The translations under genes and the position numbers were made by a program. A stretch of DNA of 58,598 nt, from contig CAZTQB010000001.1 in NCBI GenBank assembly GCA_964615775.1, positions 1 through 58,598 on the forward strand, given 5' to 3'. Source of the stretch: an uncultured Candidatus Saccharibacteria bacterium (GTDB taxonomy: Bacteria > Patescibacteriota > Saccharimonadia > Saccharimonadales > 2-12-FULL-41-12). Shown in pieces: positions 236 through 11,037 of this stretch (position 1 is its first letter; each line of letters opens with the position of its first letter). The notes under the pieces are model-generated. The model made no database searches, was not told the origin of the DNA, and saw only the letters and a list, made by a program, of their open reading frames with translations.

Positions 236-550
236 TTAAAAACCTAGCCAGTAGCTTTCGGTATCGTCAGGGATGTTTTTATACTCTATGAACTTCTCGC
301 AGTCTTCCTGCTTTGCGCTGCGCTCAAAGATAAAGTAATCACTCTTAATATCTCCTGTTTTACCGCGTTGAACTCGTGCCTCACAAATCAAGTTCTTCTC
401 ATCTGTTTCGGCTTCTTTGCTCAGCTCACTCGCTACCTTGTCTTTATAGTATTGAGAGGTGTAATAATAGCCTCCGTAAGCACCACCAGCCAGTGCAGCA
501 ATAATAAAGGCGACGAGTACATATTTATTGATAGATACGGTATTTTTCAT
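236..550 (-). CDS. Hypothetical protein with N-terminal membrane anchor
   Basis: 104 aa with a hydrophobic N-terminal segment; last gene of a tightly packed minus-strand operon. Confidence 0.75.
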   Translation of the reverse strand: MKNTVSINKYVLVAFIIAALAGGAYGGYYYTSQYYKDKVASELSKEAETDEKNLICEARVQRGKTGDIKSDYFIFERSAKQEDCEKFIEYKNIPDDTESYWLGF

Positions 551-552
551 AG

Positions 553-927
553 TTAATAACTCGGAACAGGATTCTCTCTACAATCGAAATTACTTTTAAT
601 GTCCTGTTGATAGTATGCATCCAAGGATGCAGATGATTTAAGACCACTCCACGTACTGCTAGGCATGCCACAATAATGATAATAGGTACTGCCAAGCTTG
701 ATGACCAAATACTCGTTCACACTGTCATACCAAGCACCTTTTACAGTTGAGTCTGACTTGTCGAGTGGCTCAAAATTGCTAGCTGAAATATTTACTTTAT
801 CATCGCGGTATTTAACATTTACATAGCCAGAGCCAGGGGATGCAAAGATCGCATATAGTATAACAACACCTATTAGTATCGCGAGTCCGATATATACCCA
901 TGAATAGTTTTCTTTATGCTGTGTCAT
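553..927 (-). CDS. Membrane-anchored KTSC-domain protein
   Basis: N-terminal TM; C-terminal WYD...L.I....YYHYCGMP..TW..L..S.S...YY...IK..F pattern typical of KTSC; ATGA overlap with the upstream gene. Confidence 0.65.
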   Translation of the reverse strand: MTQHKENYSWVYIGLAILIGVVILYAIFASPGSGYVNVKYRDDKVNISASNFEPLDKSDSTVKGAWYDSVNEYLVIKLGSTYYHYCGMPSSTWSGLKSSASLDAYYQQDIKSNFDCRENPVPSY

Positions 928-1769
928 TTCGTTAGCGTAGCCTTTACGCGCTTAGAAACAAGGAAGTATGGGATCCAGATACAAGAAAAGATAATGGCTC
1001 GACCAATAGACCCACCTTGCTTACTCATCTCGCTATCGACATTTATGTTGTACTCGCTAAAGATTGAGCTTGCCCATGCGTAATCTACGACACCAAGAAC
1101 TATATTTGCCACCAAGAATGCGATAGCAACATGTTTGGCGAGTCGTTTATGCTGCGCAAGGAGCACAATTAACCAAATTGCTACAGCGGCTAGTGCTGCG
1201 AACTGGAAGACTTCAAACCATAGAGCAGGCATCATGGCCGCAACGAACCCGGGAGCTTGTGACCTTACAGATTCAATCTCGTTGAATGCGGATGGGTACG
1301 TAAAGATTTGAAAGATATTATAAATGATGGCAATACCTAGCCCGACAATAAAGTATGCCAGCCAGCCTTCAAGTCCGATCTTCTGATCGCGTCGTTGCTC
1401 TTTTGTCATTTTGTCGGGATTAGTGGTTTTTGTAAGGTAGGAATCTCCAGGCGACAATTGATTTTTTAGCTTTTCTGCTTTCGCATAAGTTTCGCCACGC
1501 ATATCTATCGCTTGATTGATAAAATCTAGCGCATCATCGTCATGTCCATTGAAGTAATGAACTAACGCCTGTAACTCATAAAGTTTATATCTCGCCGTAC
1601 CGATTTCGTCACTATATTGGTACTTTTCAGCTAAGGAATCGAGTCGTTTTTGAACTAGAGCCAGTAGTGCTTTATCTTTTTCGCGAGATGTTGCATCTTT
1701 GAGGTTTGCCTCGACGACTTTAATTTGTTCTATATAAGTCTGGCGAGTTTTTGAGTGTGGAAGCTGCAT
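924..1769 (-). CDS. Membrane protein: helical/TPR-like N-terminus plus DUF2569-like TM domain
   Basis: GLEGWL at the start and WIPYFLVSKRVKATL at the end of the TM domain match the DUF2569 pattern; start overlaps the upstream stop (TAATG). Confidence 0.65.
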   Translation of the reverse strand: MQLPHSKTRQTYIEQIKVVEANLKDATSREKDKALLALVQKRLDSLAEKYQYSDEIGTARYKLYELQALVHYFNGHDDDALDFINQAIDMRGETYAKAEKLKNQLSPGDSYLTKTTNPDKMTKEQRRDQKIGLEGWLAYFIVGLGIAIIYNIFQIFTYPSAFNEIESVRSQAPGFVAAMMPALWFEVFQFAALAAVAIWLIVLLAQHKRLAKHVAIAFLVANIVLGVVDYAWASSIFSEYNINVDSEMSKQGGSIGRAIIFSCIWIPYFLVSKRVKATLTK

Positions 1770-2161
1770 TATTCTAAATCTCCCCAGTCTCGCGAATCTT
1801 TATCTTTTGTAGCAGTCGCAGTACTCCCTTGAGGATTGCGACGCTTATTGAGAATGATAATACCGAAGATGAGGCATGGCACAAAAGCTAGCATGCTTCC
1901 GGCACCGAGTAGGAACAGTACGACATTCGAGATAGTCCGAAACATTGACGCATTGTCACTGCCGTTCAGTTCCTGTCCGCCTACACCTTGCGCTATGCTT
2001 GCACCATCCGAAAGACTTGGTGATGAAGTATCAGACACGGGCGCGGAGCCTGCAAGAATAAAGTTGATAATTGCATACAAAATAATTGATAATATGAGTC
2101 CGAGTGCTGGCCCGATAATCAAAAATATTGGTAGTTTCAGGCTTTGTTTTTGTTGCGTCAT
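1769..2161 (-). CDS. Two-TM hypothetical protein ending in RDWGDLE
   Basis: Start moved to 2161, where the ATG overlaps the upstream TAA (TAATG); two hydrophobic segments. Confidence 0.75.
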   Translation of the reverse strand: MTQQKQSLKLPIFLIIGPALGLILSIILYAIINFILAGSAPVSDTSSPSLSDGASIAQGVGGQELNGSDNASMFRTISNVVLFLLGAGSMLAFVPCLIFGIIILNKRRNPQGSTATATKDKDSRDWGDLE

Positions 2162-2829
2162 TACTCTAGGTCTCCCCATGTTCGTTTAGTGTCATCTGGC
2201 TGCTCGATATCTATAACTTCATCGTGTCGGGTTGCGTGTTTTTCGGCACGAGTAAGAGCATATGTAAACAGTAGTTGAATAACCAATGAGATGATGAGGA
2301 TAGTAACAAGCACAGGGAATGCTTGCCCGAGAGTCATGCCGAATATACCAATACAGATCATAAGTGCGACAACACCGAGTGCAAGGAAAAATGTTGTCAT
2401 ACCTGTCGAGGTATTGTCCTGTTCTTTAGATGCCATGTATTGCCATGGCGCAAGCACAACAGCATAGAGCCATAGGAGACTTGCCCAAAGCGGTGCGGAT
2501 GGCGAGCTTAACGCAATATCTGCGATGTAGTATGTCGAGACAGCGATAAGCCCATACGTATACGCAATACCCAGCAAGCCAAAGATGAAAAACAATACAT
2601 ATTTACGCTTTTCGGCAAAAGCAGCCGCTGGTGCGGCAAAGAGCAAGCTAGGCATAAGGAATAGACCAATAATCATCGCGCCAAACATCATATAGAGTAA
2701 GCCACCGATAAATAGTGACCACTCACCAGCGATCATTAGCCATATACCGCCAACAATTCCACCGAGTACGTTCAGTATGAGAATAGGAGCGCTTAGCGCT
2801 GTAATGAGACCGGTAAAGAATCGTTCCAT
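2161..2829 (-). CDS. Multi-pass membrane protein ending in RTWGDLE
   Basis: 222 aa, about six hydrophobic segments, in operon context. Confidence 0.8.
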   Translation of the reverse strand: MERFFTGLITALSAPILILNVLGGIVGGIWLMIAGEWSLFIGGLLYMMFGAMIIGLFLMPSLLFAAPAAAFAEKRKYVLFFIFGLLGIAYTYGLIAVSTYYIADIALSSPSAPLWASLLWLYAVVLAPWQYMASKEQDNTSTGMTTFFLALGVVALMICIGIFGMTLGQAFPVLVTILIISLVIQLLFTYALTRAEKHATRHDEVIDIEQPDDTKRTWGDLE

Positions 2830-2837
2830 ATTAACAC

Positions 2838-3377
2838 CTACGAACCCTGGCAGTATGTTGAACCGTTCTCCAGGAGAATGGTGATTGAGTAAGCACGCTC
2901 AGATGATGCACCATCGCAGTTTTTACCGACTGAATAAACGGCGATATCTGTTGTTGGGTCACCCTCACTAGTGAGAGCTGTAACCTGACCAAGACTAGAG
3001 GTTGAAAGATCGCTTGGAGCTGGAAGCTGTCCGCGATTAGTCGTTTGGAAGTTCAGTACATCAGTAGTCAAAACGGTAACGTCATTTTTACGGGCAGTAT
3101 CGCGCTGGCTCTTCTGTAATGCGGGAAGTGCAGCTTGTACCATCCAAACGATCAGTAAGCTAATAACGATGCCAATGACGCCCGTAACAATACCCGCTAC
3201 TGCCTTTTTGTGACCTTGTTTCTTGAGAGAGTTCACGCCAAGGATAATAGCAATAACACCTAAAGGAATGCCAATATACCATACGATAGAAGCAACGATT
3301 GCCAAAATGCCAAGTACTAATGCCGCCGTTGAGTGTCCTTGACCACCCGTCTGTTCTGTTTTGCTCGCTTCTGACAT
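2838..3377 (-). CDS. DUF4190-like TM hairpin fused to a type IV pilin-like domain
   Basis: N-terminal A.LVLGILAI...G..LG.IAIILG pattern, then ALPALQKSQRDTARKNDV..L......Q..NRGQLP, which resembles the alpha-1 helix of Saccharibacteria pilins. GAGG SD upstream. Confidence 0.65.
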   Translation of the reverse strand: MSEASKTEQTGGQGHSTAALVLGILAIVASIVWYIGIPLGVIAIILGVNSLKKQGHKKAVAGIVTGVIGIVISLLIVWMVQAALPALQKSQRDTARKNDVTVLTTDVLNFQTTNRGQLPAPSDLSTSSLGQVTALTSEGDPTTDIAVYSVGKNCDGASSERAYSITILLENGSTYCQGS

Positions 3378-3406
3378 GTCGTATGTTCCTCACTTTCTCT
3401 AAAATT

Positions 3407-3535
3407 AAAAAACGACAACCATTCTAGGTTGTCTAGGCCAAACAACAAGAGTCAAGCTCCAGTGTCTTTCGAATGGTTGCCGCTTTCAAAGCTTGACCAA
3501 GATCAAAAGACCTTTCGTGTTGTTTAACCTAGACA
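3407..3535 (-). ncRNA. Structured 5' leader / C4-like antisense-attenuator RNA with intrinsic terminator
   Basis: Nested stems 3430-3437/3528-3535, 3440-3446/3519-3525 and 3451-3458/3490-3497. Terminator hairpin 3414-3433 followed by a U-tract (3407-3412). Internal 3471-3481 is complementary to 3414-3424. TATAAT on the minus strand at 3542-3547. Confidence 0.6.
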
Positions 3536-3616
3536 TTCCCGATTATAGCTGTTAGTGGTCAGTTTTACTACATGCATCAGCTATTTATCAGTAAATATTT
3601 TTTTCGCGTTGCTTCC

Positions 3617-3709
3617 TTACCCGTTCTGGTTGATTGTAGGTAGAATGACGGTAATAATCTCGTCAGTTTCTTCTTGAGTTAATGGTCGTCTCTTCTTTTT
3701 TGAACTCAT
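3617..3709 (-). CDS. Possible 30-aa peptide MSSKKKRRPLTQEETDEIITVILPTINQNG
   Basis: ATG overlaps the TGA of the EVE-like gene (ATGA); below the ORF-track cutoff. Confidence 0.35.
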   Translation of the reverse strand: MSSKKKRRPLTQEETDEIITVILPTINQNG

Positions 3710-4128
3710 ACGATGAAATCCTCGATATATTCAATCAAGGCAGGATTAGTATCGAGTGAATTGGCCAGCCCTTGCGGTGCTGTAAATCCACGCTGCTTCA
3801 ACTCTTTGAGAGGGATAACCCCGTCCTCAGCTTCACCTAAAAGCTTCAAGCGAAAAATTCGTGGAAAGCTTTCGAGGTCTTTAGGGTAAACACCCCCAGC
3901 CCAGAATCGACGGTCATCAATTTTAGTGGCCATCGTAATATCGTCAGCCACCACTTCCAACTTATAAACTATTCCACCTCGCCCACGGGGAGGGATAACT
4001 TCGTATACATACACGAAATCACCAACCTCAAACTTATTGTTCGTTACCCAGTCCATTTGGCCATTAGTTTGAAGCGATGCCTCGGCATTGTAGGTTGCTG
4101 GATTTGATGCGATTACCCATGTACTCAT
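3706..4128 (-). CDS. Stand-alone EVE/PUA-like domain protein
   Basis: N-terminal TWVIASNP..Y...........W......EVGD.VYVY pattern of EVE domains. Confidence 0.6.
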   Translation of the reverse strand: MSTWVIASNPATYNAEASLQTNGQMDWVTNNKFEVGDFVYVYEVIPPRGRGGIVYKLEVVADDITMATKIDDRRFWAGGVYPKDLESFPRIFRLKLLGEAEDGVIPLKELKQRGFTAPQGLANSLDTNPALIEYIEDFIV

Positions 4129-9169: not shown

Positions 9170-9394
9170 ATGGATCGCAACAGTACAAACAATTCGCAGG
9201 AAGTCGCCGCAGGCTTCTACTCTCCGAGTGAGGAGCAGATTGTATTGCTGCAATCTATATTGCAGAAAGAATCACATGAATCAGTTTCGCTCAAAGAAGC
9301 GCAGGAGGTGGGCATACAGCTCGTGTCACTCTACGAGTGTCTGGCAAGGGATAGGACGCCCCCTATTGGAGTAAGAGGAAATGATGAATCCTGA
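9170..9394 (+). CDS. Small protein overlapping the recombinase start; putative recombination directionality factor
   Basis: GGAGG SD; coupled to the recombinase. The RDF role is inferred from position only. Confidence 0.55.
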   Translation: MDRNSTNNSQEVAAGFYSPSEEQIVLLQSILQKESHESVSLKEAQEVGIQLVSLYECLARDRTPPIGVRGNDES

Positions 9395-10880
9395 TGAAAT
9401 AGGCGTTATTCTCGCTCGTGTCTCAACTAAGGGGCAGGAAGATGAGGGTTATTCGCTTGAGGCTCAGGTTAAAAATCTGAGGATGTATTGTACGAATACG
9501 CGAATCAATCCGATTAAAGTCTTCAAGATTGCTGAGTCCGCATCAAAGACTGAGCAGCGCAAGATATTCAAAGAAGCCATGCAGTTTGTGGAGAAAAAAC
9601 ACGTTAAGAACCTCATTGTCGAAAAGGTAGACCGCCATGTGCGCAATCTGCATGATGCGGTCGAGACGCATGACTGGCTCACTAAAGACGAGACGAGAAA
9701 AGTACACTTCGTTAAAGATGCAATTGTTCTACATAAAAACTCTCGATCTCAAGAGTGGCTTAACTGGGGTATGCGTGTCGTTCTTGCTAAGAACTACATC
9801 GATAACCTACGTGAAGAAGCCATGAAAGGATGGGCCGAAAAACTAGCGCAAGGCTGGATGCCAGCACCACCACCCCCAGGCTATATGACCGTTGTTCGCG
9901 ATGGTAAGCGTATTCACGACTTCAACCCCGAAACCTACAAGTCTATGCAGCGAATTTTTCAGCTCATGCTTGAACCTCAGTACACCATAGAAACGATCCG
10001 TCATAAAATGACAGAGTTTGGGCTGGTGACCGGTAAAGGCAGACCATTCTCCAAGAGCCATGCACATAGAATACTGACAAATCCATTCTACATAGGAACC
10101 ATTCGCTTTAATGGCAACGAATACCCAGGTAAGCAGCCACACCTGATATCCGAAGAGCTGTTTAATGCAGTACAAGCCAAAATCTCACGCAAACGACCTG
10201 CGAAGTATCGCAAGCACAACCCATTACTCAAGGGTGTAATGATCTGTGAACACTGTGGCAAGAACATTACGTGGCAGCTCCAGAAAGGCCGATTGTACGG
10301 CTCATGTCAGCGTAAGTTAGAGGCTTGCAAGAAACAGAGCTTTGTCCGCGAAGATGCCGTCCTAGAGCTTATCCAAGGCAAGCTGGACGAACTTATCTGC
10401 CCATCTCCTGAGGTTATAACGTGGCTGACGACGTTACTGCATCAAGACTTCCAACTGTCAGTCAACAACGTCGAAGAGGCCCAGAAAGCCCTTGACGAGC
10501 GAATTGAGCGTATCAAGCGGATGGATGACATGCTGTATGACGATAAGCTGGCCGGACTTATTTCTGGCGAGCGCTATCAGAGTAAGCATGATTCATTCAT
10601 TAGTGAAATTAATGATCTGCAAAAGCAGAAAGGAGGCATAAGCCAAGAATACGAAACTAAGTACATGAATGGGATATCCGAGATAGAGCTGTCACAGGAC
10701 GCTAAACGGCTATTCGCAGACGAAAATACAAGCAGTGACGACAAACGAATAATTTTAACCAAACTATTCGAGAAGATCAGCCTAAAAGACAATTCCGTAT
10801 CTGTTACGTACACCAAACTGACACAGGCAATAGCTCGAAATAGCGGTTTAAGTAAGGAGATTTTGGGATATGCAAAATAA
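9381..10880 (+). CDS. Large serine recombinase (integrase)
   Basis: Catalytic ARVST..Q...GYSLEAQ, EKVDR..R, recombinase domain, zinc ribbon (CEHCG...C..C) and coiled coil. Confidence 0.95.
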   Translation: MMNPDEIGVILARVSTKGQEDEGYSLEAQVKNLRMYCTNTRINPIKVFKIAESASKTEQRKIFKEAMQFVEKKHVKNLIVEKVDRHVRNLHDAVETHDWLTKDETRKVHFVKDAIVLHKNSRSQEWLNWGMRVVLAKNYIDNLREEAMKGWAEKLAQGWMPAPPPPGYMTVVRDGKRIHDFNPETYKSMQRIFQLMLEPQYTIETIRHKMTEFGLVTGKGRPFSKSHAHRILTNPFYIGTIRFNGNEYPGKQPHLISEELFNAVQAKISRKRPAKYRKHNPLLKGVMICEHCGKNITWQLQKGRLYGSCQRKLEACKKQSFVREDAVLELIQGKLDELICPSPEVITWLTTLLHQDFQLSVNNVEEAQKALDERIERIKRMDDMLYDDKLAGLISGERYQSKHDSFISEINDLQKQKGGISQEYETKYMNGISEIELSQDAKRLFADENTSSDDKRIILTKLFEKISLKDNSVSVTYTKLTQAIARNSGLSKEILGYAK

Positions 10881-10962: not shown

Positions 10963-11037
10963 TGGCTGGGAGTGAGGGATTCGAACCCCCGAATGCCAGG
11001 ACCAAAACCTGGTGCCTTACCACTTGGCCAACTCCCA
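10963..11037 (-). tRNA. tRNA-Gln (anticodon UUG)
   Basis: Minus strand TGGGAGT acceptor stem, anticodon arm CCAGG-TTTTGGT-CCTGG, GTTCGAATC T-loop and encoded CCA. Confidence 0.97.

Follow-up and report, generated by a model that had tools for sequence, protein, structure and literature searches.

Genomic context of the leader and its operon

The window, by which we mean the whole stretch of 58,598 nt analyzed here, is the beginning of contig 1 of a 764 kb genome, and close homologs of its proteins are annotated as Candidatus Saccharibacteria. Bases 1 to ~10,900 form an integrated element, which has a G+C content of 0.42-0.48 (compared with ~0.38 in the remaining window) and encodes both a Replic_Relax protein and a large serine recombinase (499 aa, 9381-10880); the latter ends 83 nt from the tRNA-Gln(UUG) gene, which lies on the other strand (10963-11037). 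The G+C content drops from ~0.45 to ~0.38 past the recombinase and tRNA-Gln genes, marking the likely right end of the element; the contig starts within the element, so that its left end is missing.

The element carries an operon on the minus strand, with the following genes:

2838..3377, minus strand: first gene, encoding a 179-aa membrane protein (DUF4190 at the N-terminus, a pilin-like domain at the C-terminus)
236..2829, minus strand: five further membrane-protein genes of the same operon, including DUF2569 and KTSC-domain proteins

An initial annotation of this DNA had described a six-gene operon here, and indeed the six ORFs (3377-2838, 2829-2161, 2179-1769, 1769-924, 927-553 and 550-236) are tightly packed or overlapping, and all of them encode membrane proteins. 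The Pfam DUF4190 match of the 179-aa protein scores 28.1 bits, under the curated cutoff of 35, and PF07963 is present in distant hits of the same protein. The SD sequence and ATG of its gene (start at 3377) are found 28 nt past the U tract of the leader RNA described below.

In related elements the genes just upstream of the leader, for proteins of 314 and 140 aa, are conserved, as is a 30-aa ORF. The 30-aa ORF, MSSKKKRRPLTQEETDEIITVILPTINQNG (3617-3707, minus strand), starts at the stop of the 140-aa gene with an ATGA overlap. Homology between the elements stops at ~3629, within the last codons of the 30-aa ORF, and the cargo beyond this point differs from one relative to the next. We therefore read ~3629 as a cargo-exchange junction, and the leader together with its operon as cargo of the element in the window. 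No homologs of the RNA were therefore obtained through relatives of the 140-aa gene, which retain the backbone up to the point where homology ends (~3629).

A folded leader RNA that overlaps its own terminator

The features of the leader, all on the minus strand, are listed in the order of transcription:

3542..3547, minus strand: -10 box TATAAT, read directly in the sequence
3536-3534, minus strand: predicted transcription start at the first base of P1, from the position of the -10 box
3528..3534, minus strand: P1 5' strand GUCUAGG; P1 is 99.8% paired in the family, 4 of its 7 pairs covary and GUC/GAC is invariant
3518..3525, minus strand: P2 5' strand AAACAACA; eight P2 pairs in the window, all eight covarying
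3499..3514, minus strand: P3, a variable hairpin AAGGUC-UUUU-GAUCUU; a hairpin in most homologs
3490..3498, minus strand: P4 5' strand GGUCAAGCU; P4 is 98.4% paired and all eight counted pairs covary
3471..3481, minus strand: putative antiterminator (pseudoknot) strand GGCAACCAUUC in the ~31-nt P4 loop, from covariation and duplex energies
3450..3458, minus strand: P4 3' strand AGCUUGACU, from covariation
3440..3447, minus strand: P2 3' strand UGUUGUUU, from covariation
3431..3437, minus strand: P1 3' strand CCUAGAC, its GAC common to the terminator 5' arm
3427..3433, minus strand: terminator 5' arm GACAACC, from a terminator scan; helix 98.4% paired
3414..3424, minus strand: 3' half of the terminator loop (GAAU) and terminator 3' arm (GGUUGUC), from covariation
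3407..3412, minus strand: U6 tract of the intrinsic terminator, from the sequence and the terminator scan; kept in the family consensus

The initial annotation had proposed that transcription starts at a nested stem whose 3' arm overlaps a terminator, and the sequence features on which both parts of this proposal rest are confirmed. The TATAAT box (3547-3542) lies 7 nt before P1, and the start is predicted at 3536-3534. P1, formed by GUCUAGG (3534-3528) and CCUAGAC (3437-3431), closes a 104-nt nested fold comprising P1, P2, P3 and P4 (3534-3431). A -35 hexamer was not found with the -10 box in the window copy or its relatives, which is why a promoter scan omits this start site. The terminator, GACAACC-UAGAAU-GGUUGUC (3433-3414), is followed by a G and then by U6, and is present in the output of the terminator scan. 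Within the P4 loop, GGCAACCAUUC (3481-3471) is complementary to GAAUGGUUGUC (3424-3414) over 11 bp including one G-U pair, making the segment 3414-3424 a shared partner of the terminator 5' arm and the P4-loop strand. The minimum free energy of the 141-nt stretch is -48.2 kcal/mol (z = -4.67, with none of 200 shuffles equaling it), and comparison of the fold energy of the P1-closed core with shuffled sequences gave z = -6.05.

Some of the earlier claims about the RNA need correction. A second CCUAGA partner for the 5' UCUAGG is present in the window, as had been noted, but the family does not keep it: the alternative P1 is 67% paired compared with 68% in shuffles, and shows no covariation. The predicted processed RNA of ~105 nt corresponds to the P1-closed core only (104-105 nt), and a transcript ending at the terminator would be ~128 nt long. 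A leader peptide was considered and rejected, as the AUG at 3536 is not conserved and is absent in most homologs.

A family of leaders in Saccharibacteria and other CPR

Among the homologs of the 179-aa protein that we collected, two loci (L015 and L016) carry a related leader directly upstream of the gene, with compensatory changes. In a sample of 400 genomes of the same order, a covariance model built from three sequences (R1) matches at least 65, in at least 54 of 255 genera, and the R1 matches that were scored amount to 1-3 copies per matching genome; since no more than the top candidates of each genome were scored, this prevalence is a lower bound. A second model, R2, built from 73 hits, additionally matches at least seven sampled genomes outside the class, in other CPR, and the pseudoknot pairing is kept in all four of these matches that were inspected.

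The genome that contains the window has a second copy of the leader at contig 1:162377-162511, minus strand (locus L002 1501-1635), which scores 80 bits with R1 and 117 bits with R2. It lies upstream of a gene for a DUF805-type membrane protein with a TTG start and has a different 4-nt ‘address’, CUCU:AGAG (the locus-specific part of the loop-to-terminator pairing). A DNA similarity search within the taxonomic family (29 genomes) recovered only the two copies of this genome. The RNA had at first been tied to the surface-protein cargo of a single element; it occurs instead in many genomes of the Saccharimonadales and in further classes of CPR, with a chromosomal copy in the same genome.

Searches of Rfam did not retrieve the motif: in the window region 3300-3720 at E <= 10, the two hits given by cmscan (RefA5 and JPX_2) are chance matches, and 18 further loci of the family gave no hit at E <= 1. 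At the gathering threshold, the whole window matches Rfam at a tRNA only. T-boxes, known riboswitches and ribozymes were rejected as matches by these scans. Viral collections gave no match in protein-based scans, in megablast and blastn searches against phage records, or in conserved-pattern scans of IMG/VR, and literature searches found no description of the leader RNA. The leader is one copy of an uncatalogued family of folded RNAs of ~130 bases that is widespread among ultrasmall Saccharibacteria and other CPR.

Comparative support for the helices and the pseudoknot

We aligned 72 distinct homolog sequences using a model that did not include the pseudoknot. Because these sequences share ancestry, the shuffle statistics given below overstate their independence. 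Outside a two-pair extension of P2, the helices P1, P2 and P4 are paired at 98-100%, and almost every pair shows double changes; the six pairs of P2 that form one helix are 97.6% paired and the extension 88.9%, with covariation at all eight. The terminator helix is 98.4% paired and also covaries (pair 191-213, for example, is AU in 24 sequences, GC in 23 and CG in 6).

The pairing of the loop strand at 3471-3481 with the terminator, proposed initially from the window alone, is 96% paired among the homologs and covaries. In this pseudoknot (96.4%), 120 double-change cells were counted compared with 38 in shuffles, none of 500 shuffles equaled the pairing, and its score of 0.40 compares with at most 0.07 for controls in which one strand was slid. 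The scaffold and pseudoknot together are 97.5% paired, with double changes at 26 of 34 pairs, and score 0.634 compared with 0.175 for shuffles and no more than 0.085 for slid controls; the terminator form is 97.8% paired over the same 72 sequences. The mutually exclusive structures that had been postulated between promoter and operon can therefore be named, namely the pseudoknot and the terminator, both of which covary. The four terminator-loop positions are 90% paired with the P4 loop and show double changes at all four pairs, which argues for a real loop-to-loop pairing, as nothing else explains covariation at these positions.

Duplex energies agree with this picture. Cognate loop-terminator duplexes have a mean of -18.1 +/- 1.4 kcal/mol compared with -10.5 kcal/mol for non-cognate ones, and the cognate partner is the better one in 72 of 72 sequences. 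The terminator hairpin averages -8.8 kcal/mol in the homologs, making the pseudoknot ~9 kcal/mol more stable as computed without pseudoknot topology penalties or co-transcriptional kinetics, a limit that applies to all of the energies given here. A near-invariant G-U pair in the pseudoknot (68 of 71 sequences), the model scores of the two strands (133-160 bits on the forward strand and 21-31 bits on the reverse) and the pseudoknot itself rule out a DNA-level repeat or att site.

The only conserved unpaired bases are aAa and cgaaa, which flank the pseudoknot strand, and an AG in the terminator loop; the sequence of the junction is unconserved across the family, and the U tract is kept in all copies. 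A hammerhead-like reading of the GUC and CGAAA motifs was dropped, as there is no conserved CUGANGA box.

The promoter and the downstream gene are constant in position. A TAnnnT box ending 6-7 nt ahead of the P1 GUC is present in 59 of 73 loci (a conserved -35 element was not found across these homolog loci), and an ORF on the same strand begins 0-75 nt past the U tract in all 73, preceded by an SD sequence in 72, leaving too little room for another promoter. At the level of aligned sequences, the comparative evidence shows all of the helices, both alternatives for the terminator 3' arm, a fixed position of the promoter and a downstream gene on the same strand.

Competition between P1, the terminator and a putative decoy

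The 3' strand of P1 and the 5' arm of the terminator have an invariant GAC (3433-3431) in common, and the same GAC is needed by both the 5' GUC of P1 (3534-3532) and the GUC at the 3' end of the terminator (3416-3414), which are likewise invariant. In the best nested fold from +1, P1 is kept in full and the terminator is reduced to a 4-bp stub in 69 of 72 homologs.

Upstream of the loop strand, 69 of 73 homologs have a P3 region that folds as a hairpin with 4 bp or more, and the ~10 nt before P4 and the beginning of P4 often resemble the loop and 3' arm of the terminator. Pairing of this decoy, made up of the 3' side of P3 and the start of P4, could hide the loop strand; we rate it as no more than probable because its register is not fixed. 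A decoy helix in fixed register has weak support, at 61% paired overall and, in the address part, 58% compared with 50% in shuffles. The flexible energy test supports the decoy better, with cognate decoy-loop duplexes at -13.1 kcal/mol compared with -8.5 kcal/mol for non-cognate ones (better in 63 of 72), and in predicted nascent transcripts 81% of loop-strand bases are paired compared with 58% after shuffling of the decoy. In the window, the best nested fold pairs 3499-3516 with 3463-3476 (GGUCUUUUGA with UCGAAAGAC, and UGGU with ACCA), a form of the decoy pairing particular to the window in which half of the antiterminator strand is masked.

The estimated difference between the ON state (scaffold plus pseudoknot) and the OFF state (best nested fold) is -4.8 +/- 3.3 kcal/mol with no pseudoknot penalty, so the two states would be near balance.

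Genes that accompany the leader

The genes downstream of the leader encode membrane or secreted proteins, in the window and at all 73 loci, yet belong to more than 35 unrelated families. DUF4352 proteins are found at 16 loci, DUF805 proteins at 7 and DUF4190/pilin-like proteins at 5, and CAP, SHOCT and GIY-YIG proteins also occur; at four loci the downstream gene encodes a 360-aa protein with only a below-threshold NucS_C match. A recurrent upstream gene family able to encode a dedicated regulator was not found at the family loci. Upstream genes are often markers of mobile DNA, including the terminase large subunit (7 loci), N6/N4 methylases (4) and integrases (2), and many family loci are on prophages or integrative elements. 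Eight genomes have multiple copies of the leader, and the 4-nt address differs between copies in five of them and is the same in three.

In seven genomes (L097, L105, L107, L118, L123, L130 and L139) a phage terminase large-subunit gene precedes the leader in the same orientation, with a gap of 32-62 nt in six and of ~400 nt in L118. The next gene is then a DUF4352 gene or the gene for the 360-aa protein with the below-threshold NucS_C match, a moron-like placement inside prophages.

Proposed mechanism

We consider it likely that the leader acts in cis as a transcription attenuator, with an intrinsic terminator of its own, representing an uncatalogued family of Saccharibacteria and other CPR. 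Since it has no Rfam match and its loop does not target the ribosome-binding site, we regard it as a cis-acting terminator/antiterminator and not as a relative of the C4 RNAs, as had been suggested initially.

Based on the comparative analysis, the following sequence of events can be proposed. Transcription would start at the first base of P1, and the RNA would fold as a three-way junction of P1-P2, P3 and P4, in which the outer GUC:GAC pairs of P1 take up the GAC needed by the base of the terminator. The GGCAACC of the P4 loop and the adjoining address could then pair with the terminator loop and 3' arm to give a pseudoknot of 11-13 bp, removing the 3' arm from the terminator, with the four terminator-loop bases, which are made first, possibly serving as a toehold. 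The upstream decoy may hide the loop strand and so favor termination. Scaffold plus pseudoknot would lead to read-through into the downstream gene, and a hidden loop strand together with an invaded P1 would lead to a ~128-nt RNA ending at the U tract. Most likely, then, the leader decides whether transcription stops at its own terminator, and we infer that the choice between termination and read-through is regulated. The pseudoknot is more stable than the terminator hairpin, which P1 blocks as well, so constitutive read-through, with the terminator rarely used, is also conceivable.

As for what sets the switch, we prefer a trigger shared by all hosts to a dedicated metabolite aptamer, with the speed of RNA polymerase or NTP level, Mg2+, temperature and a general RNA-binding factor as candidates. 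This preference follows from the small number of conserved unpaired bases, which argues against a metabolite aptamer, from the long and stable pseudoknot, and from the portability of the leader across genes and hosts: it precedes unrelated genes, is carried by mobile elements in many hosts and has no recurrent neighboring gene.

Alternative explanations

A more specific version of such a switch is that the leader is a sensor particular to CPR, a portable promoter-plus-switch cassette that has spread with phages and integrative elements and reads one signal common to epibionts. We hold this to be possible yet doubtful, with a host-contact or starvation-linked metabolite, a second messenger or the elongation rate of the polymerase as candidate signals. 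It seems unlikely that the leader is a conventional small-molecule riboswitch, in which a metabolite or second messenger would bind the junction or the pseudoknot, stabilize the latter and switch the genes on. The architecture is that of an ON riboswitch, with the P1 3' strand common to the terminator and the pseudoknot 3' strand in competition with it, the A-rich flanks of the loop strand (aAa...cgaaa) could line the pseudoknot groove, and the diverse, mostly envelope-related genes resemble those controlled by second-messenger riboswitches. However, very few unpaired positions are conserved and the junction sequence is not, a pseudoknot of 11-13 bp at -18 kcal/mol hardly needs a ligand, the locus-specific address would make part of the pocket variable, and the more than 35 downstream families have no metabolic or transport theme. 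Hairpins that stabilize a transcript at its 5' end are established for the ompA and ermC leaders, and the position of P1 at +1 in nearly all copies recalls them. The leader could accordingly be an unregulated 5' module, in which P1 and the pseudoknotted fold stabilize the mRNA and silence a vestigial or insulating terminator without sensing anything; the thermodynamics, which favor P1 and the pseudoknot, and its use as a portable cassette ahead of unrelated accessory genes would fit. A covarying terminator hairpin with a U tract in all copies is hard to explain if the terminator never acts, though, and the cognate-specific decoy implies that a second state is under selection, so that we judge this reading quite improbable.

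We find it very unlikely that the leader is a stand-alone sRNA of ~128 nt, whose terminator would form its 3' end and which would refold to the pseudoknot and act in trans. It does come with a promoter and a terminator, it could plausibly refold once released since the pseudoknot exceeds the terminator hairpin in stability, and the address is shared among copies in three of the eight multi-copy genomes. In the other five the addresses differ, and a same-strand gene within 0-75 nt of every one of the 73 copies, with an SD sequence in 72, is unexpected for independent sRNA genes. No other target was found either, and complementarity of the loop to the ribosome-binding site is no better than in shuffles (-11.9 kcal/mol against the SD/start region compared with -10.5 +/- 2.5 kcal/mol in shuffles, 123 of 500 of which are as good). 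The same result bears on the C4-type antisense regulator, in which the loops of a processed RNA pair with downstream targets and shut off the operon, and to which we give almost no credence. The window copy does sit on an integrative element, and a leader-derived loop of element-specific sequence pairs with a downstream site in the same transcript. However, cmscan matched none of the Rfam families C4, c4-2 and c4-a1b1 at 3300-3720 of the window (E <= 10) or at 18 further family loci (E <= 1); there is one loop strand where C4 has two, its target is the terminator and not a ribosome-binding site, pairing would activate and not repress, and the cargo encodes membrane or secreted proteins, with no antirepressor gene downstream. 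The C4 label fails on every testable point of membership, leaving only the loose analogy of a leader loop that pairs with a downstream site in the same transcript.

Comparison with known systems

The attenuator that we propose resembles most of all the platforms of the fluoride (crcB) and ZTP ON riboswitches in its layout: these are also promoter-proximal, the 3' strand of P1 overlaps the terminator 5' arm, the pseudoknot uses up the terminator 3' arm, and the gene follows directly. The leader, in contrast, lacks conserved ligand-pocket bases, a known ligand and an Rfam match, and its pseudoknot is 11-13 bp long, includes the terminator loop and contains a variable, locus-specific 4-nt address. 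With attenuators of the trp/pyr, PyrR and LicT/RAT types it has in common three mutually exclusive pairings (sequestrator, antiterminator and terminator) and, as proposed here, an outcome decided during transcription, but it has no conserved leader peptide or known protein-binding motif, and its antiterminator would be a long-range loop-to-tail pseudoknot, not an adjacent hairpin.

The C4 RNAs of phages P1 and P7 are likewise element-specific; the leader is not homologous to them by Rfam and, unlike them, is widely chromosomal in CPR. HK022 put and the Bacillus EAR element are promoter-proximal structured RNAs of phages or accessory operons that enable the polymerase to pass terminators. Those RNAs act on the polymerase and on distant terminators, whereas the covariation in the leader points to direct RNA-RNA masking of its own terminator.

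Implications for gene regulation in Saccharibacteria

Gene regulation in Saccharibacteria and other CPR is almost unknown, and surface proteins are central to their life on the host cell. The leader is a compact, self-contained control unit of ~150 bp, consisting of a -10 box, a fold and a terminator, which evolution has repeatedly put before unrelated membrane, secreted and phage-borne accessory genes in many genera. Its layout is unusual, in that a distant hairpin loop is complementary to both the loop and the 3' arm of the terminator, with a locus-specific address and a decoy to match. If the leader responds to a signal, its copies would define a regulon of accessory envelope genes, and it could supply a native, transferable expression switch in organisms for which inducible systems are still missing; riboswitches have been named as promising candidates for inducible expression in these organisms (2024 review, PMC11665869). 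Should it be a CPR-specific sensor as outlined above, it would activate any surface or accessory gene placed after it and would be the first native riboswitch-like regulon described for Patescibacteria, with the programmable 4-nt address keeping copies from cross-talking.

A second type of leader upstream of the same gene family

The 179-aa DUF4190/pilin-like gene family appears to be served by two unrelated leaders, since homologs in other Saccharibacteria are preceded by another structured RNA. LOOT RNA (RF03000) occupies the same place as the leader, directly upstream of these homologs, but is unrelated to it in sequence and fold, and there is no LOOT match in the window. At L013 (2317-2434), the structured RNA that precedes the homolog of the 179-aa gene is a different one, matching LOOT RNA with 76 bits, and an RNA like that of L013, judged by sequence similarity only, is found at the same position in L012, L014 and L017.
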